NCBI RefSeq assembly: GCF_054482595.1
Contig: NZ_CM137008.1
Reading direction: 5' to 3' (one strand)
DNA length: 64,000 nt
The position numbers and the translations under genes are program-made. The notes beneath the pieces were generated by a model, which did not search any database, was not told the DNA's origin, and saw nothing but the letters and a program-made list of their open reading frames with translations. Each line of letters begins with the position of its first letter. Within the stretch, counting starts at the first letter, position 1. Below are positions 3,713-47,566 of this stretch, one piece after another.

Positions 3713-6825
<3,113 letters not shown>

Positions 6826-8130: not shown

Positions 8131-8139
8131 GCAAACAAT

Positions 8140-8170
8140 GTCGGATGCGGCGCGAGCGCCTTATCCGACC
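8140..8170. repeat. REP (palindromic unit) in lacY-lacA intergenic region
   Basis: gtcggatgcggcgcgagcgccttatccgacc. Confidence 0.7.
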
Positions 8171-8195
8171 AACATATCAGGACGGAATGATCGCA

Positions 8196-8807: not shown

Positions 8808-8819
8808 ATTATAAAAATT

Positions 8820-8885
8820 GCCTGATGCGCTTCGCTTATCAGGCCTACAAGTTCAGTGATCTACATTAGCCGCATCCGGCATGAA
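8820..8885. repeat. REP pair downstream of lacA / cynX
   Basis: gcctgatgcgcttcgcttatcaggcctac ... gccgcatccggc. Confidence 0.65.
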
Positions 8886-12266: not shown

Positions 12267-12294
12267 CCGCTGACACAGGTCTGCGGCTGGAATT

Positions 12295-12357
12295 GCCTGA
12301 TGCGCTACGCTTATCAGGCCTACGAGTTCAGTGTAAGGCGTTCACGCCGCATCCGGC
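12295..12357. repeat. REP pair between cynR and codA
   Basis: gcctgatgcgctacgcttatcaggcctac ... gcgttcacgccgcatccggc. Confidence 0.7.
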
Positions 12358-12396
12358 ATAAACTACGCTCGCTTTGTCAACACACAGCCCAGCCGA

Positions 12397-13680
12397 TCAC
12401 CGTTTGTAATCGATGGCTTCTGGCTGCTCCAGATATACGGTGGTTTGTGCCGGTTGTGTGCTGGCGATCACCTTACCGCCACGTACAGAATAACGTACCG
12501 GAACCTGACGGCGCAGCGCATCAAATCCATTTTCAGCCGGCAGGATAATCAGGTTCGCGCTGTTTCCGGCGGCAATGCCGTAATCCTGCAAATTCAACGT
12601 CCTGGCGCTGTGGTGGGTGATTAAATTCAGGCCATCGTTAATCTGCCCATAGCCCATCAGCTGGCAAACATGCAGCCCCATATGCAGCACTTGCAGCATA
12701 TTCGCCGTTCCCAGCGGATACCACGGATCGAAGACATCATCGTGACCAAAGCAGACGTTAATGCCGGACTCCAGCATCTCTTTAACGCGCGTGATGCCGC
12801 GACGTTTTGGATACGTATCGAAACGTCCTTGCAGATGAATATTGACCAGCGGGTTGGCGACAAAGTTAATACCGGACATTTTCAGCAAGCGGAACAGGCG
12901 TGAGGTATACGCCCCGTTATAGGAGTGCATTGCCGTGGTGTGGCTGGCGGTGACTCGCGCGCCCATGCCTTCACGGTGCGCCAGGGCAGCAACGGTTTCG
13001 ACAAAGCGCGACTGCTCGTCATCGATCTCATCACAGTGAACGTCGATGAGACGGTCGTATTTTTGCGCCAGGGCGAAGGTTTTATGCAGCGACTCCACGC
13101 CGTATTCACGGGTAAATTCAAAATGCGGAATCGCCCCCACTACATCTGCCCCTAAGCGTAACGCCTCTTCCAGCAACGCTTCACCGTTGGGATACGACAA
13201 AATCCCTTCCTGAGGGAAGGCGACGATTTGCAGATCAATCCACGGCGCGACTTCCTGCTTCACTTCCAGCATTGCTTTCAGCGCAGTTAGCGTTGCATCC
13301 GAAACATCGACATGGGTACGCACATGCTGAATGCCGTTGGCAATCTGCCATTTCAGCGTTTGCCAGGCGCGTTGTTTCACATCGTCATGGGTTAATAACG
13401 CTTTGCGCTCGGCCCAGCGTTCAATGCCTTCAAACAGCGTGCCGGACTGATTCCAGTTCGGTTGTCCGGCGGTTTGCGTGGTGTCCAGGTGAATATGCGG
13501 CTCCACAAATGGCGGTATAACTAAACCTTGTTCGGCATCCAGGCTGTTTTCAGTTATGGGCATCACGCCGGATTGCGCATCAATGGCGCTGATTTTTCCG
13601 TCCTGCAGATGAATCTGCCACTGCCCCTCTTTGCCTGGTAACCGGGCGTTAATAATTGTTTGTAAAGCGTTATTCGACAC
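12397..13680 (-). CDS. codA: Cytosine deaminase CodA (427 aa, GTG start)
   Basis: [38 protein letters not shown]... amidohydrolase; start overlaps the codB stop. Confidence 0.92.
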
Positions 13681-14929
13681 TGTTAGCCTCCACATGCGTC
13701 ATTGCTGCTGTCGTTTTACGATTCAAAATCGGGTTAAGGATCAGATAGCTCAGCGCGCCACCTAATACCGCGTTGACCGGAACAATTCCCGGTAACCAGT
13801 GGCCTGCAGCAATCCCCAAGGCGACCGCCAGAATCGCCACCCAATTGACACTCATCATACGCGTGGTCGCAAAGTGCTCATAGCGGCGACGGTTCATCAG
13901 ATAGTCGGCAATGATCACGCCACCCACTGGAGGAATAGCTGCCGAAAGGAAGGTCAACCAGCCGACAAAATTGTTATACAGCCATAATGCGCAGACCGTA
14001 CCGATAATACCGTTGATTACCGAAAGGGTTTTGCTCGACATCCCGGTAATGTTGGCGAAACCTAAACCCGACGCATAGAGCGCGTTATCGTTGGTGGTCC
14101 AGATATTTAGCCCCAGCACCACAATCGCAGGCAACAGCAGGCCCTGAGCAATCATCACATCAGAGATATCCGCCAACCCCAGTGCCGCCGCTCCCGCTGC
14201 ACCGAAAATAAACATCAACGAGTTGCCGAGGAAAAAGGCCACCATCGCCACCAGCACCGCCAGTTTGGCATTGCGACCAAACCGGACAAAGTCAGCGGTG
14301 AGCGTACCCGCACTGATAAATGACCCCACAACCAGCGCCAGCGCGACATTGAAATCTAACGGTTGTGCGGGAACGACCGCTTTTAATGCGTCCAGGCCGC
14401 CCATGCCGTTAACAGCCAGCCACACGGAATAACCACCAAGGCAGGCGATAGCCGGAACCGCAATCACCGAAAGAACCGTCAGCGCCGAAATGCCAAAGAA
14501 GACGGTGACGGTCATCAGTAAACCGGAAACGGCAATCAGCAAATTAATATCCAGCCCGGTTGCCTTGCCCACCGGAATGGCAAACATCGCCACACCGACG
14601 CCAAACCAGCCAACCTGGGTGCCGCCCAGCAGCAGTGAAGGCAGCCATGAGCCTTTAACACCAAACGAGAAGCGAGCAAGAAGATGGGTGGTCAGGCCGG
14701 TTTTTGCACCAATGTAACCGAGAAATGAAGTGTAAATACCGAGGAGAAGATTACCGATGAGAACTGCGAGGAAGAAATCATGATAGCTAAGACCGGTTCC
14801 GAGAGTGCCGCCGGTCCACATACTGGCGGAAAAGAAGGTTAATCCCAGCATGACGAACGTCAATGCCAATACCCCTTTCCGCGCCGACTGCGGGACTGGC
14901 CCCTGGCTAAAGTTGTTATCTTGCGACAC
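13670..14929 (-). CDS. codB: Cytosine permease CodB (NCS1 family, 419 aa)
   Basis: [41 protein letters not shown]..., 12-TM transporter directly upstream of codA. Confidence 0.93.
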
Positions 14930-15081
14930 GAAATTCCCCCTTTTTGCTGTTTGAAACCCAAAAAATCCGCCGCATTCTATTCATCTGAAGATAAAAAGCA
15001 ATCGTTTTCGTGGGGAAATATATTTTTTATATGAATGAGTGCAAAAAGGTGGGGGAAAAATTATCGGTGTAAAAACAGTGG

Positions 15082-15816
15082 GTAGGCATAATAAGACGCG
15101 GTAAGCGTCGCATCAGGCATCGGCGCATGGTGTCGGATGCGGCGCGAGCGCCTTATCCGACCTGCGGTTCAGGCCTGTAGGCATGATAAGACGCGCCTGC
15201 GTCGCATCAGGCATCTGCGCATGGTGTCGGATGCGGCGCGAACGCCTTATCCGACCTGCGGTTCAGGCCTGTAGGCATGATAAGACGCGCCTGCGTCGCA
15301 TCAGGCATCGGCGCACGGTGTCGGATGCGCCGCGAGCGCCTTATCCGACCTACGGTTCAGGCCTGTAGGTATGATAAGACGCGCCTGCGTCGCATCAGGC
15401 ACTGAGCACGGTGTCGGATGCGGCGCGAGCGCCTTATCCGACCTACGGTTCAGGCCTGTAGGCATGATAAGACGCATCAGCGTCGCATCAGGCATCGGCA
15501 CACGGTGTCGGATGCGGTGCGAGCGCCTTATCCGACCTACGGTTCAGGCCTGTAGGCATGATAAGACGCATCAGCGTCGCATCAGGCATCGGCACACGGT
15601 GTCGGATGCGGCGCGAGCGCCTTATCCGACCTACGGTTCAGGCCTGTAGGTATGATAAGACGCATCAGCGTCGCATCAGGCACTGAGCACGGTGTCGGAT
15701 GCGGTGCGAGCGCCTTATCCGACCTACGGTTCAGGCCTGTAGGCATGATAAGACGCGCCAGCGTCGCATCAGGCATCTGCGCACAACTGTCGGATGCGCC
15801 ACGCGACGCATCCGAC
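15082..15816. repeat. BIME / REP array: about 8 tandem units of about 94 bp, each containing two oppositely oriented palindromic units
   Basis: gtcggatgcggcgcgagcgccttatccgac recurs at about 15131, 15226, 15319, 15413, 15507, 15601, 15683 and 15790, interleaved with cgtcgcatcaggcatc. Confidence 0.9.
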
Positions 15817-15822
15817 AATACC

Positions 15823-17709
15823 TTACTCTTCCATCGCCTGGCGGATCTGATCCAACGACGCCGGATCATCAATGGTCGTCAGATCCCCCGGATCGCGTCC
15901 TTCGCAAATCGCCTGGATCGTGCGGCGCAGCATTTTTCCGGATCGCGTTTTTGGCAATTGCGAGACAAACCAGACGTGCGCCGGGCGGCCAAAGTTGCCA
16001 ATCTGGCTGTCCACCAGCGCCATAATCGCCTTCTCTTGCGAATGCGCCACATCACGATCTTCCAGACTGTCGCTCTCTTTCGGAATGACAAACGCCACCG
16101 CCACCTGCCCTTTCAGCGCATCGTTCACCCCAACCACCGCCACTTCGGCAACGCCCGGATGACTGGAGATACTCTCTTCAATCTCGCGCGTCCCCAGCCG
16201 ATGCCCGGCAACGTTAATTACATCGTCAGTGCGCCCGAGAATAAAGTGATAACCGTCAGCGTCACGGATGCCCCAATCAAAGGTGGCGTACACCGGGCGG
16301 GAAAACAGCGACCAGTAAGTCTTCACAAAGCGGTCGTCGTCGCCCCAGATGGTCTGAATACAGCCCGGCGGCAGCGGCCCTTCCACCACCAGCATCCCTT
16401 TCTCGTTGACGCCACACGGTTCGCCGGTGACTTCATTAAGCAACTGCACGTTATAGCCATACATCGGCACGCCGGGGCTTCCCAGACGCGTCGGCCTGTC
16501 GTCCAGACCGCGAGCAATCGCCATAATCGGCCAGCCGGATTCGGTCTGCCAGTAGTTGTCGATAACCGGCACATCCAGCGTATTGCTTACCCAACTGGCG
16601 GTTGGCTCGTCCAGCGGCTCCCCCGCCAGATAGAGTACTTCCAGCGACGAAAGATCGTGTTTGCGAATTTCAGCGGTAGGGAATTTTTTCAGCACGCGAA
16701 TGGCGGTCGGCGCCGAGAACATCCGGCTAACCTGATATTTCTCGACGATTTTCCACCACACGCCGCAGTCCGGCCAGGTCGGTAATCCTTCGTAAACGAT
16801 AGTCGCCATCCCCGCCAGCAGCGGCGCGTAGACGATATACGAATGCCCCACCACCCAGCCGATATCCGAAGCACAAAAGAACACACCGCCCGCTTTGCCG
16901 CCAAAAATGGTGTCCATCGAGGTCGCCAGCGCCACCGCATATCCGCCGACGTCACGCTGCACGCCTTTAGGTTTGCCGGTCGTGCCGGAGGTGTAGAGAA
17001 TGCAGGAGGTTTCGTTGGATTCCAGCCACGCCACCGGTACCCGCGCGCCGATGTGTTGATGGCGCAACGACGCGAAATCGACATCCCGCCCGCTGACGCG
17101 CGCCATTTTCGCCAGCCCGCGATCCACCAGCAAAACATGGCGCGGCTGGTGCTGCGCCTGACTTATCGCATCGTCGAGCAATTTTTTATAGGGAATGATT
17201 TTGCCACCGCGCGCTCCGGCATCAGCCGAGACAATCAGCACCGGTTTAGCATCATCAATTCGCGCCGCCACGCTATGAGAGGCAAATCCACCAAACACCA
17301 CCGAGTGAATAGCGCCAATGCGCGCGCAAGCCAGCAGGGTTATATGCGCTTCGGCAATCATCGGCATATACACCAGCACCCGTTCGCCACGCTGCACGCC
17401 CAGTGAGCGCAGCATTGACGCCACCGCGTTCACTTCGTCATGCAGCTGACGAAAGGTAAAGGTGCGCTCTTCTTCTGTTTCCGAAGAGACGGCAATCAGC
17501 GCCAGCGCCTCTGGCTGTTTCTCCAGCCAGCGATCGATAGCGTTGTGACACAAGTTGGTTCGGCCTTCACAAAACCAACGGGCAAACGGCGGATTGCTGT
17601 GATCGAGCGTTTGCGTAAAGGGCGTCTGCCAGTCAATACGCCGGGCCTGCTCGGCCCAGAACTGCTCCGGTTCGTTAATCGAACGCTGATAAAATTCGCT
17701 AAAAGACAT
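15823..17709 (-). CDS. prpE: Propionyl-CoA synthetase PrpE (628 aa)
   Basis: Acyl-CoA synthetase (AMP-forming) fold, last gene of the prp operon. Confidence 0.95.
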   Translation of the reverse strand: MSFSEFYQRSINEPEQFWAEQARRIDWQTPFTQTLDHSNPPFARWFCEGRTNLCHNAIDRWLEKQPEALALIAVSSETEEERTFTFRQLHDEVNAVASMLRSLGVQRGERVLVYMPMIAEAHITLLACARIGAIHSVVFGGFASHSVAARIDDAKPVLIVSADAGARGGKIIPYKKLLDDAISQAQHQPRHVLLVDRGLAKMARVSGRDVDFASLRHQHIGARVPVAWLESNETSCILYTSGTTGKPKGVQRDVGGYAVALATSMDTIFGGKAGGVFFCASDIGWVVGHSYIVYAPLLAGMATIVYEGLPTWPDCGVWWKIVEKYQVSRMFSAPTAIRVLKKFPTAEIRKHDLSSLEVLYLAGEPLDEPTASWVSNTLDVPVIDNYWQTESGWPIMAIARGLDDRPTRLGSPGVPMYGYNVQLLNEVTGEPCGVNEKGMLVVEGPLPPGCIQTIWGDDDRFVKTYWSLFSRPVYATFDWGIRDADGYHFILGRTDDVINVAGHRLGTREIEESISSHPGVAEVAVVGVNDALKGQVAVAFVIPKESDSLEDRDVAHSQEKAIMALVDSQIGNFGRPAHVWFVSQLPKTRSGKMLRRTIQAICEGRDPGDLTTIDDPASLDQIRQAMEE

Positions 17710-20445: not shown

Positions 20446-20530
20446 GTCGGATGCGACGCCATGCGTCTTATTCGACCTACAGTTCAGTACACCCGTAGGC
20501 CTGATAAGCCGCGTCAGCGGCGCATCAGGC
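20446..20530. repeat. REP pair between prpB and prpC
   Basis: gtcggatgcgacgccatgcgtcttattcgacctac ... gtaggcctgataagccgcgtcagcggcgcatcaggc. Confidence 0.75.
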
Positions 20531-20562
20531 ATCGGTTGTCGAATACAACCAACGGGCGTTTT

Positions 20563-23278: not shown

Positions 23279-23375
23279 ACTGCCGAATGCAGCGCGAACG
23301 CTTTATCCGGCATAAATTTCAATAGATGATCACCGATAAACTTACGCATCGGGGATGTTTACATAGGATTCAGAA

Positions 23376-34125: not shown

Positions 34126-35076
34126 TTACGTTTTAATAATATGGGTGCCCGTTTCACCGCGCAGCGCCGCAGGCAGGCATTCCGGCGTGGTGATAATCAC
34201 TTCTTTGCCGCCCTGTTCCAGGAACGTCAGGCTGGCGATGATTTTTGGCAACATGCTGCCAGGCGGAAAATGCCCTTCCTGCATATAGCGGGTCATGGTG
34301 GCAATATCCACGCGATCCAGCGCCTGCTGCTGCGGTTTACCAAAATGAATACACACTTTTTCCACGCCGGTGGTGATCACCAGAATGTCGGCGTGAATTT
34401 CACGGGCCAGCAGCGCGGTAGAGAGATCTTTGTCGATAACCGCGTCCACGCTTTGGTAATCTCCCGCGTCAGTACGCACCACAGGAATTCCGCCGCCGCC
34501 CGCGCCAATCACCACAAAGCCTTGTTGGATCAGCGCCTTAATGGCAGGTGCTTCGACAATACGTTTCGGTTCCGGCGAGGCGACCACGCGGCGATAGCCC
34601 CGTCCGGCATCTTCAACAAAACGCCAGTCAGGGTTTGCCTTTTGTAGTTCGTCACGCTGGCTGTCACTAAAGAATGCGCCGATGGGCTTGGTGGGATGGG
34701 CAAATCCCGGATCGTTTTTATCCACTTCCACCTGAGTCACCACGGTGACGGCTTTTTTCTCGCCGTGACGCGCCAGCCGGTTGTTCAGCGCCTGTTGGAT
34801 CAGATAGCCGATGCCGCCTTGCGTATCCGCCACACAGTTCGCCAGGGGCGTTAAGGGCAGCCCTTCGCGCTCGTGGGCAATCTCCGCGCGGCGTAAATCC
34901 AGCCCGACCTGCGGCCCGTTGCCGTGGGTCAGCACAATGTCGTAATCGGAAGCCAGCATTTCCAGCACCGTATCAGCGACGGCTTTCACCGCCTCCGCCT
35001 GATGCTCAATCGACTGGCTGGCGTTATCTTTGATAATGCTGTTGCCACCAATGGCAACGACCACAAGTTCTTTCAT
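34126..35076 (-). CDS. yahI: Carbamate kinase-like protein YahI (316 aa)
   Basis: Amino-acid kinase fold, VVAIGGNSI, THGNGPQVG motifs of carbamate kinases. Confidence 0.88.
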   Translation of the reverse strand: MKELVVVAIGGNSIIKDNASQSIEHQAEAVKAVADTVLEMLASDYDIVLTHGNGPQVGLDLRRAEIAHEREGLPLTPLANCVADTQGGIGYLIQQALNNRLARHGEKKAVTVVTQVEVDKNDPGFAHPTKPIGAFFSDSQRDELQKANPDWRFVEDAGRGYRRVVASPEPKRIVEAPAIKALIQQGFVVIGAGGGGIPVVRTDAGDYQSVDAVIDKDLSTALLAREIHADILVITTGVEKVCIHFGKPQQQALDRVDIATMTRYMQEGHFPPGSMLPKIIASLTFLEQGGKEVIITTPECLPAALRGETGTHIIKT

Positions 35077-35126
35077 CTTGTTATGTCCGCTACAGAGGGT
35101 GATGGGGTTATGACCAACGCCAGACT

Positions 35127-35484
35127 GCCTGATGCGCTACGCTTATCAGGCCTACAATTCTCGTGCCACTCGTAGGCCGGATAAGGCGTTCACGCCACAT
35201 CCGGCAATGGTGACAAATGCCTGATGCGCTACGCTTATCAGGCCTACAATTCTTGCGCCATTCGTAGGCCGGATAAGGCGTTCACGCCGCATCCGGCAAT
35301 GGTGACAAATGCCTGATGCGCTACGCTTATCAGGCCTACAAATTCTTGCGCCACTTGTAGGCCGGATAAGGCGTTCACGCCGCATCCGGCAATGGTGACA
35401 AATGCCTGATGCGCTACGCTTATCAGGCCTACAGATTCTTGCGCCACTTGTAGGCCGGATAAGGCGTTCACGCCGCATCCGGCA
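35127..35484. repeat. BIME / REP array, about 4 tandem units of about 94 bp
   Basis: gcctgatgcgctacgcttatcaggcctaca ... gccggataaggcgttcacgccgcatccggc repeated at about 35127, 35218, 35312, 35406. Confidence 0.9.
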
Positions 35485-35496
35485 TGAACATGTAGG

Positions 35497-36915
35497 TCAG
35501 ACGCCGTAACGTTCGCACCAGCCAAGAATGGCTTTCTCGAAGCAGGCGAATGGCGGATGCACAATGCCCGCGCCAATCATGCCGACGCCCGCATCTTTAT
35601 GGGCGATGGCGGTGTTGATCACCGGCAGAATGCCGCTGCTACCCACGCGGGTGATGTCGATTGCCGACGGCACGCCCATAAAACCGAGCAGCGGAATGGT
35701 GACGTTGGGGTTTTCGCCAAGGGTGATTTCGCGCATCTGACGGGAGAAATCGATAGCCTCTTCCACCGTGCCGCCCACCAGCGCAACGATTGCAGGCGCG
35801 GTCGCCATGGCAAATCCGCCAATACCGTAGGTTTCGGTGATGGCGCTGTCGCCGATATCCAGCCCCGAATCTTCCGGCTTATAACCAGCAAACATCGGGC
35901 CGATGACCTGCTGCGCTGGGCCGGTAAACCACTGCCCCGGCAGGCCGCTGACCCGCAGGCCGAACTCGACGCCGTTACGCGCCATGGTGGTAACGACGGT
36001 GCTGTATTCGATGCCGTGCGCCGCATCCATCGCCGCTTTACACATCGCCATCCACGTCGGGCCGGAGAAGTAATCGCTACTGGCAACAAACTCAAACACT
36101 TCGCGCTGTTGCGCGACGGAATAGCCCGCCTGGATAATCCCCGGCGTCAGCGCCTGAATCAGCAGCGTCGTCCCGGCGTTATTGCGGTTATGGCACTCAT
36201 CGCCCATATGCAGCGCCTGCGCCAGCATTAAGCGCAGATCGATTTCGCCGATAATTTTCATCGCGTCGCGCAGTATTGGTCCCTGCACATCACGCATCCA
36301 GTTCAGGCGGTCAATCACGCTCTGGTCGTTAGCGCCCATACGCAAAATCTTCGCCATCTGCTCGCTCATGTTGGTATAAGCGATGTTGCCGTAGGTTTTG
36401 TTTTTTACGATGTGCATAAACATCGAGGCCGAGGTAACACCCGCCATCGATCCCACGCAGTCGTGCTCGTGACACGGCGAGAAGGTGATCTCCCCGGAAG
36501 CCGCCAGTTCAGCCGCCTCGTCGAGATCTTTCGCCAGTCCTTCGAACACCAGCGCTCCGGTGACCGCGCCTTTCATCGCGCCGCACATTTTTTCCCAGGT
36601 GATCGGCGGCCCGGCGTGAAGAATGGTTTTCGGCGTCATGCCCGGCACCACGTTAATCGCCTGCTCAAAACCAATCAGCACCGGATGCGACTGGATAATG
36701 CGCTCCAGCGCCTGCTGGTTAGCGGCGGCGATTTTGTCTGCCAGCGGCGAATCGGCAATGTTGTCCAGCGCCTGCACCACCTGCATATTGCCCTGCCCCG
36801 GCGGCGTCCAGTCGAGTTGAGTCACTTCTACATGCTGCTTTTTCAGGTCATCGCTAAACATGGCGATGCCGACGTTAATAACGTTCAATGGTTGGCTAAA
36901 CAGTGACTGGCTCAT
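35497..36915 (-). CDS. yahG: DUF1116-family protein YahG (YlbE paralog)
   Basis: 472 aa; start overlaps yahF stop (ATGA). Confidence 0.8.
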   Translation of the reverse strand: MSQSLFSQPLNVINVGIAMFSDDLKKQHVEVTQLDWTPPGQGNMQVVQALDNIADSPLADKIAAANQQALERIIQSHPVLIGFEQAINVVPGMTPKTILHAGPPITWEKMCGAMKGAVTGALVFEGLAKDLDEAAELAASGEITFSPCHEHDCVGSMAGVTSASMFMHIVKNKTYGNIAYTNMSEQMAKILRMGANDQSVIDRLNWMRDVQGPILRDAMKIIGEIDLRLMLAQALHMGDECHNRNNAGTTLLIQALTPGIIQAGYSVAQQREVFEFVASSDYFSGPTWMAMCKAAMDAAHGIEYSTVVTTMARNGVEFGLRVSGLPGQWFTGPAQQVIGPMFAGYKPEDSGLDIGDSAITETYGIGGFAMATAPAIVALVGGTVEEAIDFSRQMREITLGENPNVTIPLLGFMGVPSAIDITRVGSSGILPVINTAIAHKDAGVGMIGAGIVHPPFACFEKAILGWCERYGV

Positions 36916-38462
36916 CAGGCTTCCTCCCCTTTGCAGATAAATTCACGCGCCAGCAATCCGGTATTGGTGCTGCTGCTCGCCAGAATCACTCCGGCATCAA
37001 GCAGCATCTGGCTTTGTTGTTCTAACGATGGCGTATCAAGATCGGTACCCAGCACATAGGCGAGAATGATCAACTCGCGTCCTTCGGCAGCGGCGATCGC
37101 TTTCGCTTCTTTGATCGCCTCGATGGTGGAGCCGACCGGATCTTCATGCGATCCAAATCCGAGCACAAAATCCATCACGATCACCGCCACTTCTGGATCG
37201 CGCGCCTCTTCGATCAAGCGACTGATGCGGTTGGTGGGGTCAATCATTGGATGCGGCTTGCCGTTGGTGAAGTCGTCATCGCCAAAGTCGAGGAAGGTGT
37301 GTTTGATGCTGCGATTGATATCTTTCAGGCGGAATTCAGGATCGGGCTGGATGTTGCTGTAGACATCGCCGTGTTTTTCCATCACCGCGAACATGGTTTC
37401 GTCACACAGCGTACCGCCGCAGAACAGGCCACGAATGTATTTCTGCTGGGGTTGCAGACGCGCACGCACATCCGCAATCAACGGCTGGTTAAGCGTATGC
37501 AGGTCGAGATTTTCCTGTTTCACGCCGGAGAGCATCACCGCTTTTAGCGCCGCTTCTTTGCTGCCGCGAGCAAACTGTAGCCCCTGCTCGTCAACCGGCG
37601 TTTCGCCACGACCGAGGAAGCAGACCACCACCGGCTTGCGGCAGGCGCGGGCGCGTTCCAGCACTTTACGGGCCACCGCAGGCGCGGGAGGTTTTGAAAT
37701 CAGCGCGATAATTTCAGTTTGCGGATCGTTTTCCAGCATCCCGATGGCGTCGAGCATCATCAGGCCGCCGATTTTCTCGCTCAGGTCGCGCCCGCCGGTG
37801 CCAATCAGTTGTGAAACGCCGCCACCAAATTCATGAATGCGGACGCTCAGCTCCTGGCTGCCGGTGCCGGATGCGCCAACAATACCGATGTTGCCGCGAT
37901 GCACGGCGTTACCAAAACAGAGCGCCGCGCCGTTGATAATCGCCGTGCCACAGTCTGGCCCCATCATCAGCAGCCCTTTTTCGTGGGCCAGTTGCTTGAG
38001 CGCCAGTTCATCTTCAACCGAGACGTTATCGGAAAACAGCATCACGTTGAGATCGTTTTGCAGCGCCTGACGCGCTTCGCGAGCGGCAAACAGACCGTTG
38101 ACCGAAATCACCGCCAGGTTACTTTCCGGGATATGCTTTTTGGCGCTGGCAATAGTGGCGTAACGCGCCTCGTGCGAGCCGCTTTGCGCTTTGCTGTTGA
38201 ACAGTTCTTCAATCTCCACCAGCAACTGCTCGTTGTCCGCCCCCGATTTACCATTGATGACAATCATCAGGTCGCCGTTTTTCGCCTGTTCCAGCTCCGG
38301 CGTGAGCAGTCCTAAATTTTTCAGCACACCTTTGTTCATTTCGGTCGCCATCGCCACAAATGCCTGCTCGACGCCGTCGAGTTTATTTGCACGCGTGGAG
38401 ATAGACATCAGCGAGACAGAATCAAAATAGGTATTCGGTTTAATGACTATTTTAACTGACAT
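36915..38462 (-). CDS. yahF: FdrA-like protein YahF (CoA-ligase / succinyl-CoA synthetase alpha-like fold)
   Basis: 515 aa, CoA-binding Rossmann-like N-terminus and ligase-CoA domains. Confidence 0.8.
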   Translation of the reverse strand: MSVKIVIKPNTYFDSVSLMSISTRANKLDGVEQAFVAMATEMNKGVLKNLGLLTPELEQAKNGDLMIVINGKSGADNEQLLVEIEELFNSKAQSGSHEARYATIASAKKHIPESNLAVISVNGLFAAREARQALQNDLNVMLFSDNVSVEDELALKQLAHEKGLLMMGPDCGTAIINGAALCFGNAVHRGNIGIVGASGTGSQELSVRIHEFGGGVSQLIGTGGRDLSEKIGGLMMLDAIGMLENDPQTEIIALISKPPAPAVARKVLERARACRKPVVVCFLGRGETPVDEQGLQFARGSKEAALKAVMLSGVKQENLDLHTLNQPLIADVRARLQPQQKYIRGLFCGGTLCDETMFAVMEKHGDVYSNIQPDPEFRLKDINRSIKHTFLDFGDDDFTNGKPHPMIDPTNRISRLIEEARDPEVAVIVMDFVLGFGSHEDPVGSTIEAIKEAKAIAAAEGRELIILAYVLGTDLDTPSLEQQSQMLLDAGVILASSSTNTGLLAREFICKGEEA

Positions 38463-42869: not shown

Positions 42870-42939
42870 CGAACACACCTTGATTAAATCTTGTGCGCCA
42901 GCTAAATCTGCGAGTCTTCACTCTGACTGATAAAGCTGG

Positions 42940-42988
42940 CTGCAAGAAAATGACACAGAGAGCCGAATTATCTCCCGTTCGGCTCTCT
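42940..42988 (-). terminator. Probable intrinsic terminator downstream of the autotransporter gene
   Basis: 11-bp perfect stem agagagccgaa / ttcggctctct (42957-42988) with 10-nt loop; on the minus strand followed by a U-rich tract (gugucauuuucuu). Confidence 0.5.
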
Positions 42989-43010
42989 CTCCTTTTACTC
43001 ATTATTCAGA

Positions 43011-46000
43011 TCAGAATTGCCACTTAATGCCAACCATTGCAGAGGTGTCATTATATCCCCTATCGGCAACCTGAACGCCCACATTCCCCCAGACATTCAG
43101 GTTGGCATTTAGCTGTCCTTCCACCCCGGTTTTTATCTCAGCAATATTTCGGGCTCCATCCTGAGTGACGGACACGCCATCCATACTGGTGCTGAAATCC
43201 TTACTGTTATGCAGCCAGTTCACTTCTACAAACGGCTGGAACTCGCGGGATTTACCGTCATCCATTTTATGGTGGCTCTTCAGCCAGGTTTTTACGCCAA
43301 GTCGGGTTTGAACATTGCCATCACCGTTGCTATGAACGAGGGTTCCGTTGCTTTCGCGGTGCTTATCGGCTTTGACTCCCATCCAGGTAACCTGTGCTTG
43401 CGGCTGAACATACCATTCATTACGCGTTCCCTGGCTGCCATTAAATTCAGCTAATTTGTGTTTGTATCCAGCTTCCAGTGAAGCGGTAAATCCTTTTGAT
43501 TTATAGGATTCACTTTGTAAGTCATCCCCTTTCACTGTGTTATCAAACCAGCTGTACTGCGCCCAACTGTCGAGATACGCGCCATTACGCGACTCGTCAT
43601 CGGCATACCAGGTGGCATAGAGGCCGGTGCTATATCCGTTCACACTCGCTTTTGCACGATAACCGGTTCGCGAGGAAATGGTTTTGCTGTCGCTGTTGCC
43701 ATATCCCGCCATGACCCCAACATGCCAGCTGTCGCTGCCGTTTTGGCTCCACTGCGCGACATCGCCTCCCAGTTGCAGAACATAGCGATTGCTTTGGGTT
43801 TTCAGCTGGCCGCTGCCATCACGCCATTTATTATGACCACCTTCATGGCGCATCCACATAGTGGTTTGTTTCTGCTCACCCGTCACCATGTCGGTATAGT
43901 ACGTATTACCCAGACGCTCATGCAGACGCGTGGTGAACATTGTATTCGCTGCTGCAAGGTTCGCAATGTAGCTACCCGCCTCCGGTCGCAGGTCATTATC
44001 CACATTCAGATCCGGACCCGGCGTAGGTGTCGGGTTAGGGTTCGGCTCTGGATTCGGGTTTGGCTCCGGATTCGGCATCGGGTCTGGCTCCGGCTGCAGT
44101 TCAGGAGAATCACTGCCGCTGGTCAGATACCAGTTACCACTATTTGCCCCTTGTCCACGCGCGAGAGTGTAGTCATACGCCCCCGCAACGATACGACCAG
44201 CCTGAACAAATTCGCCCTCAGACTTACCGTCTACATGGATAAGTTCGATACCGTTAAGGGTTTTCGCACCTGTACCGCCAGCGTTATTCACCGTAACGGC
44301 AGTCGTGCCGCTAGTATCGCCCTCGACAACCAATTTATCGGTTACTGAGTCATCGCCATTCAGTACCGTATTCATTACTAGTTGACCGTTATTACCGTGG
44401 TAGTTCCCCTTCACCACTAACACATTGCCAGCTTGCTGTCCTGACATTCCGGTCATCAGCGTACCGTTGTTGGTCAGATTGCCGCCCAGGGTGTAATTCA
44501 CAGACGCAGCCGCTCTTTTTTCAGTGCTATTATTCAACGCCAGGGTACCGTTGTTCTCAACGTTTGCGCTACCCAATCCCTGCGCATGACTTACCAGGAC
44601 ATTAGCCGAATTAGCAATGTTCACATTCGCCGTCAGGTTGCTGTTATCGCCCGCGATGTCCAGCGTGCCGCCCTGAATATTCAGCTCTCCGCTCCCCGTT
44701 AACGAACCGGTTGAAGTGCCCCCGTTGGTAACCGTCAGACTGCCGCCATTTAAGCTCAGCAGTGAATCGGCGCTGCCATTGAGCGTGCCCACGGTCTGGC
44801 TGTGACCATTCATATCCAGTTCAGTCTCTGCCGCCAGACGCAGTTCATGGGTATTACCCAACACGTTATCGTTATTCAACAAAAGCGTCCCACTGCGCAG
44901 ATCGGTAACACCGGTATAGTCGTTGTCTTTGTTAGAAAGCGATACGGTCTGACCCTTCTGGCTGCTGAATGCCAGGTCACCACTGCCGGTAATCTTTGCG
45001 CTGAGATCGGCGGCATTCTCGCTTTTACCGTTAGAGCTCAGCACCAGAGCATCGCTGTCGGTAGCGTGTAAATCAAGCTGGGTCAGGCCGTAACCGATAT
45101 ACAGACCGTCATTGTTTACCCCACTCGTCAGACGATAGTCGTAAGTGCCGACGGCCGCTTTTTGCCCATTCTGCTGAATATCACGTTGGGCGCTGCTGGA
45201 GAGGATTTGCCCATTTTTATCCTGCAATTGCAGATTGCCCGCATCGCCCAGAACTTCCGCACCTTGCGCATCAACCAGCTTAATGGCGCTGTTACCATCA
45301 TCGACTTCAGTGAGCGATAACGCAGAGTCAATATCACGAGATACTGAGCGGACAACGTCACTGTCAGAAACCTGAATCACACCCTCGCCGCGCAAATCCA
45401 GCGTTTTACTAACGTTGACCGTCCCTTCTGTCATCTGTGCACCTGCTGTCAGGGCACCAAAATCAACGGTTCCGCCGGAGAATCCCAAAGTGCTAATGGA
45501 GTGAGCGCCCTTACCCACTGTTACCTGGCTTCCCTGACCCGCAGTGATCCCGCCTCTCTGCAGAAACTCAGCATTCTTTTCCAGGTTAAATGTCGTGTTC
45601 TGAAACGCCAGTGAACCCTGGAACCAGTCTGTATAAGCAAACTCATCGAAGGAGAATTCGTGATTCCCCATGTTTATTTCAACAATACCTCTACCTTGAA
45701 GATCGTTATCAAATACCCAATCTTTATTGGCATTGATTTGCAGTTTGCCATCAACATCCAGGTCCGCACGGCCGATGTTCTTGTCTTCAGAAATAACCGC
45801 GACAGCACCAGAAGCGACATCAATATATCCGCTGAATGCATAGTTATTGCCGGTCAGTGCCACTGTCCCACTGTCGATACTTATTGTACCATTGCCGGAA
45901 ATCTTATTGGCAAAGGTCATGCTATCGTCAGCCTTCAGGTGTAATTTCCCGCGGTTGTTGATCTCTGCTGTACCTATATTTTTGGTGATCCCTAAAGCGC

Positions 46001-46994
46001 CATTTTGCTCAATTTTGACTTTACCACTAAAGGCAGAGTTATCACCGGTTAAGTAAGTCGTGCCATTGAGCGCATTGATATAGCCCAGGCCCTCGCTGCC
46101 ACTGACAATATCCGCGGAAATAGTCGCGTTTTTATCCGTGTGGTTTAAGGTGATTTTCTTATCGGATGTCTTTGCCCACACAAACTCAATTTTTTCGGCA
46201 TCAATAATCCCTGCAGCCTTCGCAGCACTTCCTTCCTGTGCATCTAACGCTAACTCAGAGTTGGTGCTTAAACTAATTTTCGGTGCGGATATTTTACCTC
46301 CATCTGATACGACTAATGTTGTATCAGAACGTTGGTCGTAATAACCCAGGCTAATATGTTCACGAGCATTAACTTCACCACCGTTATTAACCGACAGGAA
46401 CTGATTACCGCCATATCCGCCGTAAACGCCCATAAAGAAGGTCCCTGCATTTACCTGACTACCTTCGCCGCTTACATTCCCCTGCGTATAAGTCAGACGA
46501 CTGGTGCCCTTAACATGAATTTTGCCGCCATTGGAGACATTAAAATAGCCTTGATCATGTCTCATGCCTGAGTTTGACTCATACAAATCATCAGCATATA
46601 ACTCGCTGCCAGCATTGGAGACATTCAGGAACCCCGTACCTTTCAGCAAAAAGTTAAGCGGGCCATTGATTGTTACCTTTCCTCCGGTAATATCCAACCC
46701 ACCACCAGAAGCGAGAGTCAGACGCGGACGGGAAGTATCTGTCGTATTGATTACCAGATTGGCATTGTCAGTCACCGTAATACGGTAATCGATGCTCTGG
46801 TTCTCTTTGCCAAAATCAATAGTTTTATCCTGGTTTACGATGACATCATCGGCGAATACCAGAGATGAATATAAACTTATCGCGCTAATTAAAACAGCCC
46901 GGGACTTTTTTCCTTTTACTCTGCTCCCCAGCTCAGAGCAGACGCTCCAACAGTTACGGGACCTGTTCCACTTTAGCCGATATATTTTATTCAT
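43011..46994 (-). CDS. ehaA: AIDA-I-type autotransporter adhesin, EhaA-like (1327 aa from the ESPR Met)
   Basis: Extended signal peptide MNKIYRLKWNRSRNCWSVCSELGSRVKGKK; long beta-helical passenger; Pro-rich linker PEPDPMPNPEPNPNPEPNPNPTPTPGP; C-terminal beta-barrel ending ...VGIKWQF; size and location between yahA and betT match EhaA as I recall it. Confidence 0.7.
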   Translation of the reverse strand: MNKIYRLKWNRSRNCWSVCSELGSRVKGKKSRAVLISAISLYSSLVFADDVIVNQDKTIDFGKENQSIDYRITVTDNANLVINTTDTSRPRLTLASGGGLDITGGKVTINGPLNFLLKGTGFLNVSNAGSELYADDLYESNSGMRHDQGYFNVSNGGKIHVKGTSRLTYTQGNVSGEGSQVNAGTFFMGVYGGYGGNQFLSVNNGGEVNAREHISLGYYDQRSDTTLVVSDGGKISAPKISLSTNSELALDAQEGSAAKAAGIIDAEKIEFVWAKTSDKKITLNHTDKNATISADIVSGSEGLGYINALNGTTYLTGDNSAFSGKVKIEQNGALGITKNIGTAEINNRGKLHLKADDSMTFANKISGNGTISIDSGTVALTGNNYAFSGYIDVASGAVAVISEDKNIGRADLDVDGKLQINANKDWVFDNDLQGRGIVEINMGNHEFSFDEFAYTDWFQGSLAFQNTTFNLEKNAEFLQRGGITAGQGSQVTVGKGAHSISTLGFSGGTVDFGALTAGAQMTEGTVNVSKTLDLRGEGVIQVSDSDVVRSVSRDIDSALSLTEVDDGNSAIKLVDAQGAEVLGDAGNLQLQDKNGQILSSSAQRDIQQNGQKAAVGTYDYRLTSGVNNDGLYIGYGLTQLDLHATDSDALVLSSNGKSENAADLSAKITGSGDLAFSSQKGQTVSLSNKDNDYTGVTDLRSGTLLLNNDNVLGNTHELRLAAETELDMNGHSQTVGTLNGSADSLLSLNGGSLTVTNGGTSTGSLTGSGELNIQGGTLDIAGDNSNLTANVNIANSANVLVSHAQGLGSANVENNGTLALNNSTEKRAAASVNYTLGGNLTNNGTLMTGMSGQQAGNVLVVKGNYHGNNGQLVMNTVLNGDDSVTDKLVVEGDTSGTTAVTVNNAGGTGAKTLNGIELIHVDGKSEGEFVQAGRIVAGAYDYTLARGQGANSGNWYLTSGSDSPELQPEPDPMPNPEPNPNPEPNPNPTPTPGPDLNVDNDLRPEAGSYIANLAAANTMFTTRLHERLGNTYYTDMVTGEQKQTTMWMRHEGGHNKWRDGSGQLKTQSNRYVLQLGGDVAQWSQNGSDSWHVGVMAGYGNSDSKTISSRTGYRAKASVNGYSTGLYATWYADDESRNGAYLDSWAQYSWFDNTVKGDDLQSESYKSKGFTASLEAGYKHKLAEFNGSQGTRNEWYVQPQAQVTWMGVKADKHRESNGTLVHSNGDGNVQTRLGVKTWLKSHHKMDDGKSREFQPFVEVNWLHNSKDFSTSMDGVSVTQDGARNIAEIKTGVEGQLNANLNVWGNVGVQVADRGYNDTSAMVGIKWQF

Positions 46995-47566
46995 CACAAT
47001 CTCCAGCAATACATCCAAATAAAACCAAGATTGCATAAACAGCAACGCATTAAATGCCATTCTGGTTACTGTTCATCGCATATAAAAATTCAAAAATTTT
47101 GCATAGCATTGGCAACCACATATCTGAGTATGTAGTTCAGAGGGTAATAAAATAGCAAGTTATTACTTAAAACTTATTTTAAGTTAACACTCTTAACTTT
47201 ATCATTACATTCCTCCCAGTCTCTAATACCTGCGCATTATATGTATCCAGGAACTCAAATCAACTCAAAATATAAACAAAAGCAAGAGGAATACATTTAA
47301 TATACAGCCGATAAAAGCGGTAACTCTTATTAGGTATCAAAATATAAGAATCGTCTTATTAATAAATATATAACACTATAGGACTGAATCCATTCAGCTA
47401 ATACAAAATAAAATCGTTAATTAATAAAATATAAAATCATGAAGTGATACAAGAGGAATTGCAGGATATGACATGACAATCATATATAATATATGCATAA
47501 TTTTTTACAGCGAGTCAATGATTCCCGCGCCATATGCAGACATGGCGCGGTTTTATGCAAAAACAA

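Follow-up and report, generated by a model that had tools for sequence, protein, structure and literature searches.

The stretch of DNA analysed here, referred to as the window, comprises 64,000 nucleotides of contig NZ_CM137008.1 and carries two tandem arrays of REP palindromes, both of them extragenic: array 1 lies between the stop codon of prpE (15823) and the start of codB (14929), and array 2 between yahG and yahI. Since the 1990s the literature has covered REP and BIME clusters, their make-up from Y, Z1 and Z2 types, their placement at 3' gene ends and the variation of their copy number between strains, and array 1 is known biology, a real and unusually long REP/BIME-2 repeat of an ordinary and previously described kind. 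The features around array 1 are as follows.

13670-14929, minus strand: codB, cytosine permease, first gene of codBA; downstream of array 1, same strand as prpE
15017-15045, minus strand: sigma-70 promoter-like site TTTGCA-17-TATATT in the spacer between array 1 and codB, a consensus match only
15082-15816: array 1, typed as BIME-2; seven full units of 93-95 bp and a truncated eighth, delimited by Tandem Repeats Finder, anchors, REP coordinates and typing
15095-15114, minus strand: weak terminator-like hairpin with a T-rich tail, within the Z2 REP of unit 1
15823-17709, minus strand: prpE, propionate--CoA ligase, last gene of prpBCDE; stop codon TAA at 15825-15823

A preliminary description had assigned the arrays to convergent or operon-internal positions, which does not hold for array 1: it is not convergent, because prpE and codB share one strand, and it separates the end of prpBCDE from the promoter region of codBA. 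Array 2, in the order fdrA-yahG-array-yahI-yahJ on one strand, is plausibly operon-internal. The spacer between array 1 and codB measures 152 bp and is conserved across the alleles compared, and the -35 hexamer of the promoter-like site within it is 37 bp beyond the end of the array.

Transcripts of prpE would run into array 1. An intrinsic (Rho-independent) terminator reading of the array was rejected on anatomy, as no hairpin-plus-U terminator follows prpE apart from the single weak site at 15114-15095 (minus strand), which is the sole one in array 1 and occupies the last REP transcribed from prpE. A U tract is absent from REPs in general, and terminator-like sites in the array 1 region number 2, against 0.9 +/- 1.0 expected from shuffles.

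Structure and family of array 1

The periodicity reported earlier, about eight tandem 94-bp units between codB and prpE, was reproduced. Tandem Repeats Finder returned 15082-15798 with a period of 94, 7.6 copies, 93% matches, 0% indels and a score of 1178, and eight 'GTAGG[CT]AT' anchors stand in register at 15082, 15177, 15271, 15365, 15458, 15552, 15646 and 15739, spaced by 93-95 bp. The earlier coordinates, 15082-15816, are exact because unit 8 closes with a 28-nt palindrome at 15789-15816. Two opposed REP palindromes per unit had been recognised correctly, whereas the second palindrome put forward, cgtcgcatcaggcatc, is merely the 3' half of the 37-nt Z2 REP GTAGGCATGATAAGACGCGCCAGCGTCGCATCAGGCA. 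The array holds eight Z2 REPs on the plus strand, seven Y REPs on the minus strand and one terminal palindrome, with linkers of 11-12 nt tail-to-tail and 11 nt head-to-head that are the same in every unit.

15082-15176: unit 1, 95 bp; Z2 REP 15082-15119 (plus), variant GTAGGCATAATAAG with a 5-nt apical loop; Y REP 15132-15165 (minus), head GCAG in place of GTAG; linkers TCGGCGCATGGT (tail-tail) and GGTTCAGGCCT (head-head)
15177-15270: unit 2; Z2 15177-15213 (plus); Y 15226-15259 (minus), head GCAG; Rfam naRNA4 70.5 bits, minus strand
15271-15364: unit 3; Z2 15271-15307 (plus); Y 15320-15353 (minus); Rfam 62.8 bits
15365-15457: unit 4, 93 bp; Z2 15365-15401 (plus), variant GTAGGTAT; 11-nt linker CTGAGCACGGT; Y 15413-15446 (minus); Rfam 67.3 bits
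15458-15551: unit 5; Z2 15458-15494 (plus), loop variant GCATCAGCG; Y 15507-15540 (minus); Rfam 64.7 bits
15552-15645: unit 6; Z2 15552-15588 (plus); Y 15601-15634 (minus); Rfam 70.4 bits
15646-15738: unit 7, 93 bp; Z2 15646-15682 (plus), variant GTAGGTAT; Y 15694-15727 (minus); Rfam 60.0 bits
15739-15816: unit 8, truncated; Z2 15739-15775 (plus), then the terminal palindrome; Rfam 51.4 bits, below threshold
15789-15816: terminal palindrome, 28 nt, GTCGGATGCG-CCACGCGA-CGCATCCGAC; REP-like, not a canonical Y; starts 5-6 nt 3' of the prpE stop codon in the sense (minus-strand) direction

The array is not an assembly artefact, because an identical 3-kb locus recurs in about 19 independent complete genomes. 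Nor is it a product of chance: folded as sense-strand RNA, the array in its full length reaches -385 kcal/mol, whereas shuffled sequences reach -308 +/- 6 (z = -12.9). A CRISPR array was also considered and rejected: what repeats is the entire 94-bp unit along with the sequence between its palindromes, and unique spacers are absent, since the linkers do not change from unit to unit. In a scan of 100,044 species-representative genomes the junction of the 94-bp unit matched only the orthologous locus of E. whittamii, and therefore a unit with this junction did not show up as a dispersed family in the genomes scanned.

REPs are imperfect palindromes, 20-40 nt long, in which an internal mismatch is conserved, and reference sequences for their types are given in PMC11208160 and PMC2817692. 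In array 1 the REPs on the plus strand agree with the long Z consensus in 28-35 of its 37 positions, those on the minus strand with Y in 24-26 of 35. The GTAG tetranucleotide, which belongs to the definition of a REP as a conserved element 5' of the palindrome foot (PMC3333891), heads 8/8 Z2 REPs and 5/7 Y REPs of array 1 (the other two read GCAG) and 8/8 REPs of array 2. Long Z equals Z2, and Y together with Z2 defines BIME-2 (PMC2817692, Table 1 and text; PMC3333891). By its sequence, array 1 is thus a typical BIME-2 in which Z2 REPs on the plus strand alternate with inverted Y REPs on the minus strand, as in REP325. Descriptions of the class also name a short linker S between the REPs and flanking motifs s, l or r; the linkers of array 1 measure 11-12 nt.

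REP325, which is located between yjdM and yjdN in K-12, is composed of Y and Z2 (PMC4550694) and is the source of naRNA1-6 (RF02564), resembles array 1 in being made of tandem units of alternating, opposed Y and Z2 between co-directional genes, and its Y-Z2 tail-to-tail linker is homologous to that of array 1 in the Rfam alignment. With 6 units and 12 palindromic units it ranks among the longest arrays of K-12; array 1 has 8 units, namely 15 REPs and the terminal palindrome. The two also differ in sequence. The Y REP of array 1 reads GTCGGA...TCCGAC, a compensated change from GCCGGA...TCCGGC, its Z2 carries GGCATGAT and with it a further mismatch in the stem, and the inter-unit spacer differs as well. 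The 'GGCATGAT' head variant is shared with the Z2 REP GTAGGcatGATAAGaCGcgcCAgCGtCGCATCaGGCA at the yafM locus of K-12 (PMC2817692, Table 1), where a BIME-2 of Y and Z2 REPs flanks the RAYT gene yafM as part of a REPtron. Unlike that REPtron, array 1 and array 2 adjoin no transposase gene within the window, and they would be substrates for a transposase in trans, if at all.

BIME-1, also known as RIB or RIP, shares with both arrays the opposed REP palindromes and the position at the 3' ends of transcription units, but it is a single-copy Y+Z1 pair with a long L linker and an IHF site (PMC3333891), and neither array has this make-up: array 1 uses Z2 in tandem with linkers of 11-12 nt, and array 2 uses Z1, as BIME-1 does, in tandem and with neither L nor an IHF site. 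The suggestion that the arrays bind IHF accordingly finds no support. IHF sites belong to BIME-1 and its long L linker (PMC3333891), the L linker is absent from both arrays, and the IHF consensus WATCAANNNNTTR has no match in array 1, array 2 or the codB spacer.

The Rfam family naRNA4 (RF02564; gathering score 59.5 bits), built on REP325 (Y+Z2), gave seven matches in array 1 at 60.0-70.5 bits on the minus strand and three in array 2 at 76-78 bits on the plus strand. Seven units of array 1 and three of array 2 thus reach the gathering score, and this, with the model proposed for REP325 RNAs (PMC4550694), might be taken to mean that each unit encodes a nucleoid-associated RNA like naRNA4, a discrete RNA of ~77 nt, and that these RNAs act with HU to bridge cruciforms formed at REPs and to compact the chromosome. 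Such a role is in our view highly improbable. The Rfam model responds in practice to Y+Z BIME units of every kind and gives scores on both strands, the match in array 2 is on the strand antisense to its operon, and a 2026 re-examination of REP325 saw no change in nucleoid compaction on deletion or overexpression and no HU-dependent REP-REP contacts (bioRxiv 10.64898/2026.03.23.713779). For REP325 itself the nucleoid role is largely refuted.

With regard to RNA structure, 95.1% of stem cells are in standard pairs among 23 distinct units from 9 alleles, internal bulges are kept, and variation falls in loops and linkers. Each Z2 stem of the window allele has an extra C-U mismatch (pair 61-89), a position unpaired in 20/23 units, and the Z2 hairpins of array 1 are predicted to be somewhat weaker than canonical ones because of it. 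In the minimum-free-energy fold Y pairs with the adjacent Z2 (-40.1 kcal/mol, against -36.8 kcal/mol for two separate REP hairpins), and the RNA structure adopted is uncertain because this pairing has the lower energy. Among the 23 distinct units 0 compensatory pairs were found in the REP hairpins; the stems are almost invariant, and for that reason the covariation test speaks neither for nor against selection on structure. The asymmetry of G-U pairs and mismatches between the strands of the REP units was mixed and gave no strand call.

Array 2 and the reading frames within the arrays

The second array noted in the preliminary description, between yahI and yahG, was confirmed by Tandem Repeats Finder at about 35126-35484 (period 93, 3.9 copies, 96% matches).

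34126-35076, minus strand: yahI, carbamate kinase family, downstream of array 2
35127-35484: array 2, four units of 92-93 bp; typed as an atypical BIME, named REP23 in K-12 (PMC4765031)
35127-35155, 35219-35247, 35311-35339, 35404-35432: Z1 REPs, GTAG head on the minus strand
35172-35206, 35264-35298, 35357-35391, 35450-35484, plus strand: Y REPs
35152-35478, minus strand: 108-aa ORF, translated REP units, at the position of RefSeq yahH / 'hypothetical protein'
35244-35576, minus strand: 110-aa ORF, the second ORF of array 2
35497-36915, minus strand: yahG, DUF1116, upstream of array 2; the first REP follows its stop codon by about 12 nt

Judged by its sequence, array 2 is an atypical BIME of Y and short Z (Z1) inside the yahD-J cluster and is not of BIME-2 composition. 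The term 'atypical BIME' follows from the scheme of PMC3333891, because array 2 combines Z1 and Y but in four tandem copies, with linkers of 16 and 11 nt and no IHF consensus; in its Z1+Y content, linkers and period of 92-93 bp it differs from array 1. It is the same element as REP23/yahH, known between yahG and yahI in K-12 and O157:H7; the K-12 array has the length seen in the window, and that of EDL933 has five repeat blocks (PMC4765031). The IS621 target 11-mer occurs four times in array 2 and is absent from array 1.

Open reading frames of 42-96 aa in array 1 and of 108 and 110 aa in array 2 had been dismissed as spurious. For array 1 this stands: the frames are unannotated in the genomes inspected, have no family match, and are broken into pieces on both strands because a period of 93/94 bp is not a multiple of 3. 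For array 2 it is contested. In many genomes the RefSeq annotation has yahH or a 'hypothetical protein' within this array, and ribosome profiling of O157:H7 EDL933 placed footprints on the REP-containing ORF X002, which is yahH (RPKM 56, coverage 0.61), from which translation was argued (PMC4765031). Even so, it is most improbable that the array frames, that of YahH in array 2 included, encode real small proteins. Pfam and NCBIfam scans of four array ORFs gave nothing above any cut-off, the frames of array 2 shift in length and phase with unit number between strains and their sequences are translated REPs, and footprints could be mimicked by nuclease-resistant REP hairpins. No peptide counts are given for X002 in the mass-spectrometry columns of Table 1 of PMC4765031, and the interval from 391 kb to 570 kb, which includes the array 1 locus, contributed no novel gene to the same EDL933 screen, although prp may be silent in LB.

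Copy number across strains and species

The prpE-codB array locus is present in thousands of public genomes. Counting its units in other strains, which had been proposed as a check, revealed a polymorphism of 1-8 units. Two systematic samples of complete genomes were drawn from 5,426 genomes. Among 59 informative records one unit was found in 15, two in 34, three in 3, five in 1 and eight in 6; the second sample gave similar proportions, and no record in either exceeded 8 units. The numbers seen among the sampled genomes are 1, 2, 3, 5, 6 or 8, always whole units and with identical boundaries in all alleles; 4 and 7 were not seen in these genomes, and 6 only once. The arrays of K-12 have 1-12 palindromic units (bioRxiv 10.64898/2026.03.23.713779), so that array 1, at 15 REPs plus the terminal palindrome, does exceed the K-12 maximum and lies, as had been stated, at the upper end for E. 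coli. 'Unusually long' needs qualification, as the 8-unit allele is carried by about 10% of complete E. coli genomes in the samples, O157:H7 among them.

Exactly 8 units are carried by each of three different haplotypes, those of the window, of O157:H7 and of the FDAARGOS_1291 type, whose internal variants form differing, mosaic patterns. ATCC 43894, a laboratory stock of O157:H7, has the O157:H7 allele minus exactly three units, joined at two identical units, and in the SMBL allele unit 1 of the window is joined to the terminal palindrome. The corresponding site in E. whittamii holds 3 units, and none of the roughly 116 sampled genomes in which the locus is retained had an empty site. The array would accordingly have held the prpE-codB site since before E. 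coli and E. whittamii split, growing to 8 units in the present lineage. Whole-unit changes in copy number probably arise by recombination or slippage between the 94-bp direct repeats, and the REP-associated transposase TnpA-REP (RAYT), which cleaves and recombines BIMEs in vitro (PMC3333891), may contribute.

Strains with 1, 2 and 8 units are all common, and therefore no particular length of array 1 appears to be required; the distribution fits near-neutral length variation. One could go further and regard the array as a selfish or neutral by-product of REP/BIME amplification, by RAYT or unequal exchange, with no host function and a length set by drift. The lack of a fixed copy number between 1 and 8, the mosaic variants of the three 8-unit alleles, the clean loss of units in ATCC 43894 without obvious consequence and the want of covariation all suit this explanation, as does the fact that copy-number variation between strains is a general property of BIMEs (PMC3333891). 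We nevertheless consider it rather unlikely, since every E. coli allele examined, like E. whittamii, has kept a BIME at this exact site and between the same boundaries, no empty site was encountered, REP stems stay paired while loops and linkers vary, and REP325 has measurable local effects.

Probable local effects at the RNA and DNA levels

What the array does is probably local and at the RNA level. In this copy-number-variable BIME-2, present here in 8 units, the most likely role would be to stabilise prp mRNA through a stack of hairpins in its 3'-UTR, which would also attenuate read-through into codBA. Transcription of the propionate genes would run into up to 16 hairpins, the first of them 5-6 nt beyond the stop codon of prpE. 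If REP325 is a guide, these hairpins would be expected to block 3'-to-5' exonucleases and so stabilise prp mRNA, and partial, partly Rho-dependent termination would be expected to limit read-through into the separately regulated codBA: REP325 stabilises the upstream yjdM, and expression of the downstream yjdN is lowered about 8-10-fold, partly in a Rho-dependent manner (bioRxiv 10.64898/2026.03.23.713779). The first hairpin may in addition stall terminating ribosomes at the prpE stop codon, which is possible because it lies within 15 nt of that codon; according to Liang 2015, as reported in PMC12306157, translation is down-regulated where a REP is separated from a stop codon by fewer than 16 nt. 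The effects of REPs are strongly context-dependent, and the mRNA half-life of REP-bearing genes is generally no different (bioRxiv 10.64898/2026.03.23.713779).

At the DNA level, a BIME-2 would also be a preferred site for DNA gyrase. Its binding to array 1, mentioned in the preliminary description together with IHF, is plausible because the array belongs to BIME-2 (PMC1475751, PMC2817692), the class for which higher gyrase affinity than for BIME-1 and cleavage in vivo are recorded (Espeli & Boccard 1997, as cited in PMC1475751; PMC2817692). Array 1 might then act mainly as a strong gyrase binding and cleavage site, a topological insulator that absorbs the positive supercoils of prp transcription and shields the codBA promoter 37 bp away, with RNA effects secondary. 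Its position at the 3' end of a transcription unit and directly upstream of another promoter agrees with such a function. On the other hand, its Y and Z2 REPs are locus-specific variants (GTCGGA...TCCGAC; GGCATGAT), and the alleles of 1 and 2 units are the commonest, so that a multi-unit gyrase 'sink' is not required; a predominantly topological role is thus possible but somewhat doubtful. It is compatible with an effect on RNA, the two not being exclusive.

A more speculative reading is that unit number at prpE-codB forms a heritable, rapidly mutable 'rheostat' on which lineages have settled at different set-points, its context being the three 8-unit haplotypes and the missing lengths described above. 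We think this quite unlikely; if true, each added Y-Z2 pair would bring more protection of prp mRNA and less read-through or topological coupling into codBA.

Array 1 is passed over by annotation pipelines, whereas a repeat-derived ORF (yahH or 'hypothetical protein') is called in array 2, and genome scans will therefore keep flagging both. At prpE-codB, alleles of 1, 2, 3, 5, 6 and 8 units with identical boundaries occur naturally, a series that could show whether terminator and stabiliser effects of the REP325 type scale with the number of hairpins.

Structure and type of the prpE-codB array

The REP array between prpE and codB had been described from its sequence as about eight tandem 94-bp units at 15082-15816, each carrying two oppositely oriented REP palindromes, and these coordinates proved exact. 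Tandem Repeats Finder reproduces the periodicity on which that description depended (15082-15798, period 94, 7.6 copies, 93% matches, no indels, score 1178), and eight in-register 'GTAGG[CT]AT' anchors are spaced 93-95 bp apart. The eighth unit is incomplete and closes with a 28-nt palindrome at 15789-15816; every full unit holds a Z2 REP and an inverted Y REP.

The prpE-codB region and the parts of its repeat unit
13670-14929, minus strand: codB
15045-15017, minus strand: sigma-70-like promoter site between the array and codB
15823-17709, minus strand: prpE
Z REP, 37-38 nt, plus strand: GTAGGCATGATAAGACGCGCCAGCGTCGCATCAGGCA
Tail-to-tail linker, 11-12 nt: e.g. TCGGCGCACGGT
Inverted REP, 34 nt, plus-strand reading: GTCGGATGCGGCGCGAGCGCCTTATCCGACCTAC
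Second linker, 11 nt, invariant: GGTTCAGGCCT

The first REP of the unit matches the long Z consensus at 28-35 of 37 positions, and the inverted REP matches the Y consensus at 24-26 of 35. A long Z form identical in kind, with the same lower-case 'cat' head variant, was printed by Nunvar et al. (PMC2817692) as Z2, the partner of Y in BIME-2. As BIME-2 is defined by inverted Y and Z2 in several tandem copies with short linkers (PMC3333891), the array is, judged by its sequence, a typical BIME-2. The K-12 model element REP325, which lies between yjdM and yjdN, is also described as Y+Z2 (PMC4550694), and the Rfam consensus of its unit (naRNA4, RF02564) has a long Z like that found here; seven units exceed the Rfam gathering score for this family on the minus strand, and the Y-Z2 linker aligns with it as well. 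The Y REPs are altered in a locus-specific manner from GCCGGA...TCCGGC to GTCGGA...TCCGAC, and at the apical stem pair from T-A to C-G, with pairing kept in both cases. The Z2 REPs carry GGCATGAT and thereby gain a C-U stem mismatch; this position fails to pair in 20 of 23 distinct units. The terminal palindrome, which adjoins the prpE stop, is not a canonical REP but consists of the Y 'tail' arm and its almost perfect inverted copy (GTCGGATGCG...CGCATCCGAC); it occurs in most alleles and in Escherichia whittamii, and is replaced by an ordinary Y REP in phylogroup-B2-type alleles (EC958, uk_P46212).

On the sense strand, the prpE stop is followed after 5-6 nt by the terminal palindrome, eight Z2 and seven Y REPs, 36 nt, the promoter-like site and codB. 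Because it is flanked by the co-directional prpE end and the codBA control region, which belong to separate operons, the array, contrary to what had been supposed, is neither convergent nor operon-internal, and divides the end of prpBCDE from the control region of codBA. No hairpin-plus-U terminator was found 3' of prpE, save one weak site within the last-transcribed REP. The reading frames of the ORFs in the array (42-96 aa, both strands), which are translated REPs (e.g. MRRERLIRP...), are broken by the 93/94-bp period; the ORFs have no family match in Pfam or NCBIfam and are unannotated in all genomes inspected, and for this array the view that they are spurious stands.

Allele lengths and history at prpE-codB

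REP elements of K-12 comprise 1-12 palindromic units, with REP325 (12) among the longest (bioRxiv 10.64898/2026.03.23.713779), and BIME length is quoted as 40-500 nt (PMC1475751). With 15 REPs plus the terminal palindrome across 735 bp, the array thus exceeds anything in K-12, where the same site has two units and an intergenic region of 329 bp, versus 893 bp in the window. The K-12 reference record (NC_000913.3, 353000-355000) carries this BIME without a repeat feature. Since annotation of the array is absent from every RefSeq genome inspected, raw-sequence scans will go on turning it up.

About 19 independent complete E. coli genomes carry the same 3-kb locus at 100% identity, so the array cannot be put down to an assembly error. 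Unit counts were taken from the span between the flanks, with a flank-only query, in a systematic, unbiased sample of 59 complete genomes.

Units at the prpE-codB site
1 unit: 15/59 genomes
2 units: 34/59 genomes, two with an IS621 insertion
3 units: 3/59 genomes
5 units: 1/59 genomes
8 units: 6/59 genomes

None of the 59 sampled genomes has more than eight units, and a second, independent sample gave the same picture; a 6-unit allele occurs in NCTC9112. The copy-number polymorphism looked for at this locus is therefore present (1, 2, 3, 5, 6 and 8 units). The 8-unit allele, mostly from O157:H7, is found in about 10% of complete genomes, so that its placement at the upper end for E. coli is right as to length, yet the allele is not rare.

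All alleles share a left boundary (...AACAGTGG directly before GTAGG) and a right boundary (...CATCCGACAATACC directly before the prpE stop), and differ by whole units. Internal variants form a different, mosaic pattern in each of three 8-unit alleles (the window type, O157:H7 and the FDAARGOS_1291 type). The FDAARGOS_1291 allele equals the 5-unit PK8261 allele plus three units, as though a stretch of three had been duplicated, and the 1-unit SMBL allele is unit 1 of the window joined to the terminal palindrome. The O157:H7 laboratory stock ATCC 43894 has five units, versus eight in other O157:H7 (compared with F7386); its allele is the standard one minus exactly three units, joined between the identical units 4 and 7, which indicates very fast copy-number change or, possibly, an assembly collapse in the record. 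Read from sequence, such patterns are typical of direct repeats that undergo unequal exchange or slippage. TnpA-REP, shown in vitro to cleave and recombine BIMEs (PMC3333891), may have contributed as well. A search for the unit junction in 100,044 species-representative genomes gave only one other match, at prpE-codB of E. whittamii, where the orthologous site of Sa2BVA5 holds a 3-unit BIME-2 with the same boundaries (record 5925-6176); the element is thus old at this site and locus-specific. The same locus of E. whittamii contains, at a distance of about 4.7 kb, a second and different 92-bp REP-like tandem (2.1 copies; record 1088-1282).

In some strains the BIME is occupied by IS621 (IS110 family, bridge-RNA recombinase), e.g. 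in LR1 (NZ_CM188745.1) and the sampled records H238, H246, H16, H120, H121 and H147, inserted between GTAG and GCCTGAT of a canonical Z2 REP in the first unit. This insertion site corresponds to the natural target of IS621, published as ATCAGGCCTAC (PMC11208160). The 11-mer is absent from the window's prpE-codB array, as all of its Z2 heads have mutated to ATCATGCCTAC or the like; there are four copies in the yahG-yahI array and seven in the whole window. Solitary or paired REP-like matches, at most six edits from the Y/Z consensus, lie at ~8139-8174, 8819-8853, 12294-12358, 20492-20531 and 23281-23315, with the 11-mer at 8838, 12313 and 20495. A 7-bp duplication at the left boundary (~15075-15085 equivalent; CAGTGGGTAGTGGGTAGG vs CAGTGGGTAGG) occurs in the PK8261, FDAARGOS_1291 and LR1 alleles, with and without IS621, and might be tied to its insertion or excision or might be a simple lineage mark.

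The yahG-yahI array and yahH

The second array, also noted beforehand, spans 35126-35484 (period 93, 3.9 copies, 96% matches in Tandem Repeats Finder), with four tandem units in which a short Z (Z1, GCCTGATGCGCTACGCTTATCAGGCCTAC) alternates with a canonical Y across linkers of 16 and 11 nt. In its Z1+Y composition it resembles BIME-1, but BIME-1 is single-copy, with a long, IHF-binding L linker. The IHF consensus has no match in either array, contrary to the IHF binding that had been suggested, and the yahG-yahI array, being Z1+Y yet tandem and without this consensus, would be classed by sequence as an 'atypical BIME' under the published scheme. Its K-12 name is REP23 (PMC4765031). It begins about 12 nt past the yahG stop, between co-directional genes of the fdrA-yahG-yahI-yahJ run, and here an operon-internal position is plausible. 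Its size varies among strains from roughly half a unit to five units; the K-12 array is as long as that of the window, and O157:H7 has one unit more (our comparison and PMC4765031).

RefSeq annotates a repeat-derived ORF in this array (35152-35576, minus strand) as yahH or 'hypothetical protein'. One ribosome-profiling study of O157:H7 EDL933 argues that X002, which is yahH (REP23), is translated, and notes that it was earlier dropped from annotation owing to its repeat structure (PMC4765031). Translation is unproven, as nuclease-resistant hairpins could mimic footprints, and for this ORF the label 'spurious' is contested.

The window is E. coli DNA; over 1-38374 it matches strain AR_0085 at 99.06%, with structural differences beyond. 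In AR_0085 (record 3572145-3573353) ISVsa5 (IS4-like) splits fdrA, an insertion absent from the window (~38365-38374), which therefore derives from another strain, and the segment ~42881-47525 has no collinear counterpart in this otherwise 98-99% identical strain. The 1349-aa ORF at 43011-47060 (minus strand), between pdeL and betT, is a type V autotransporter (ESPR signal, autochaperone AC_1, beta-barrel). In both regions tested, the window is matched at 100% by XH990 and others.

RNA folding and proposed role of the prpE-codB array

An alignment of 23 distinct units from nine alleles has 72 invariant columns out of 95, with the variation in the tail-to-tail linker and apical loops, and 95.1% of stem cells are paired under the two-hairpin Rfam structure; compensatory changes in stems number zero, so covariation is silent for or against structure. 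Folded as sense-strand RNA, the whole array is much more stable than shuffles (z = -12.9). In the minimum-energy fold a Y and the neighbouring Z2 form one long hairpin (-40.1 kcal/mol, versus -36.8 for two separate REP hairpins).

The best-supported inference as to function is by analogy with REP325, which is of the same family and has the same gene arrangement. REP325 stabilises upstream mRNA and lowers the expression of the gene downstream about 8-10-fold, by termination that depends in part on Rho, leaving a ladder of RNAs that end in hairpins (bioRxiv 10.64898/2026.03.23.713779). By this analogy, prp mRNA would be protected by the array, and codBA shielded from prp transcription. Less than 15 nt separate the prpE stop codon from the first hairpin, and REPs that close are reported to stall ribosomes and reduce translation (Liang 2015, as cited in PMC12306157). 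Being a BIME-2, the array may in addition be a strong site for gyrase (PMC2817692, PMC1475751). A role of the units as nucleoid RNAs, under the naRNA4/HU model, is not favoured, as a 2026 re-examination counts against it (bioRxiv 10.64898/2026.03.23.713779). Against any strong function stand the dependence of REP effects on context (same source), the predominance of 1- and 2-unit alleles, and unit loss without obvious cost.

Both arrays are correctly interpreted as BIMEs; the preliminary description needs correcting on how the genes are oriented, on IHF, on which type each array is and on the yahH ORF. The prpE-codB array belongs to a known kind of element, at a polymorphic locus that had already been sequenced, and this locus is useful as a natural 1-to-8-unit allelic series for the dose dependence of REP effects.
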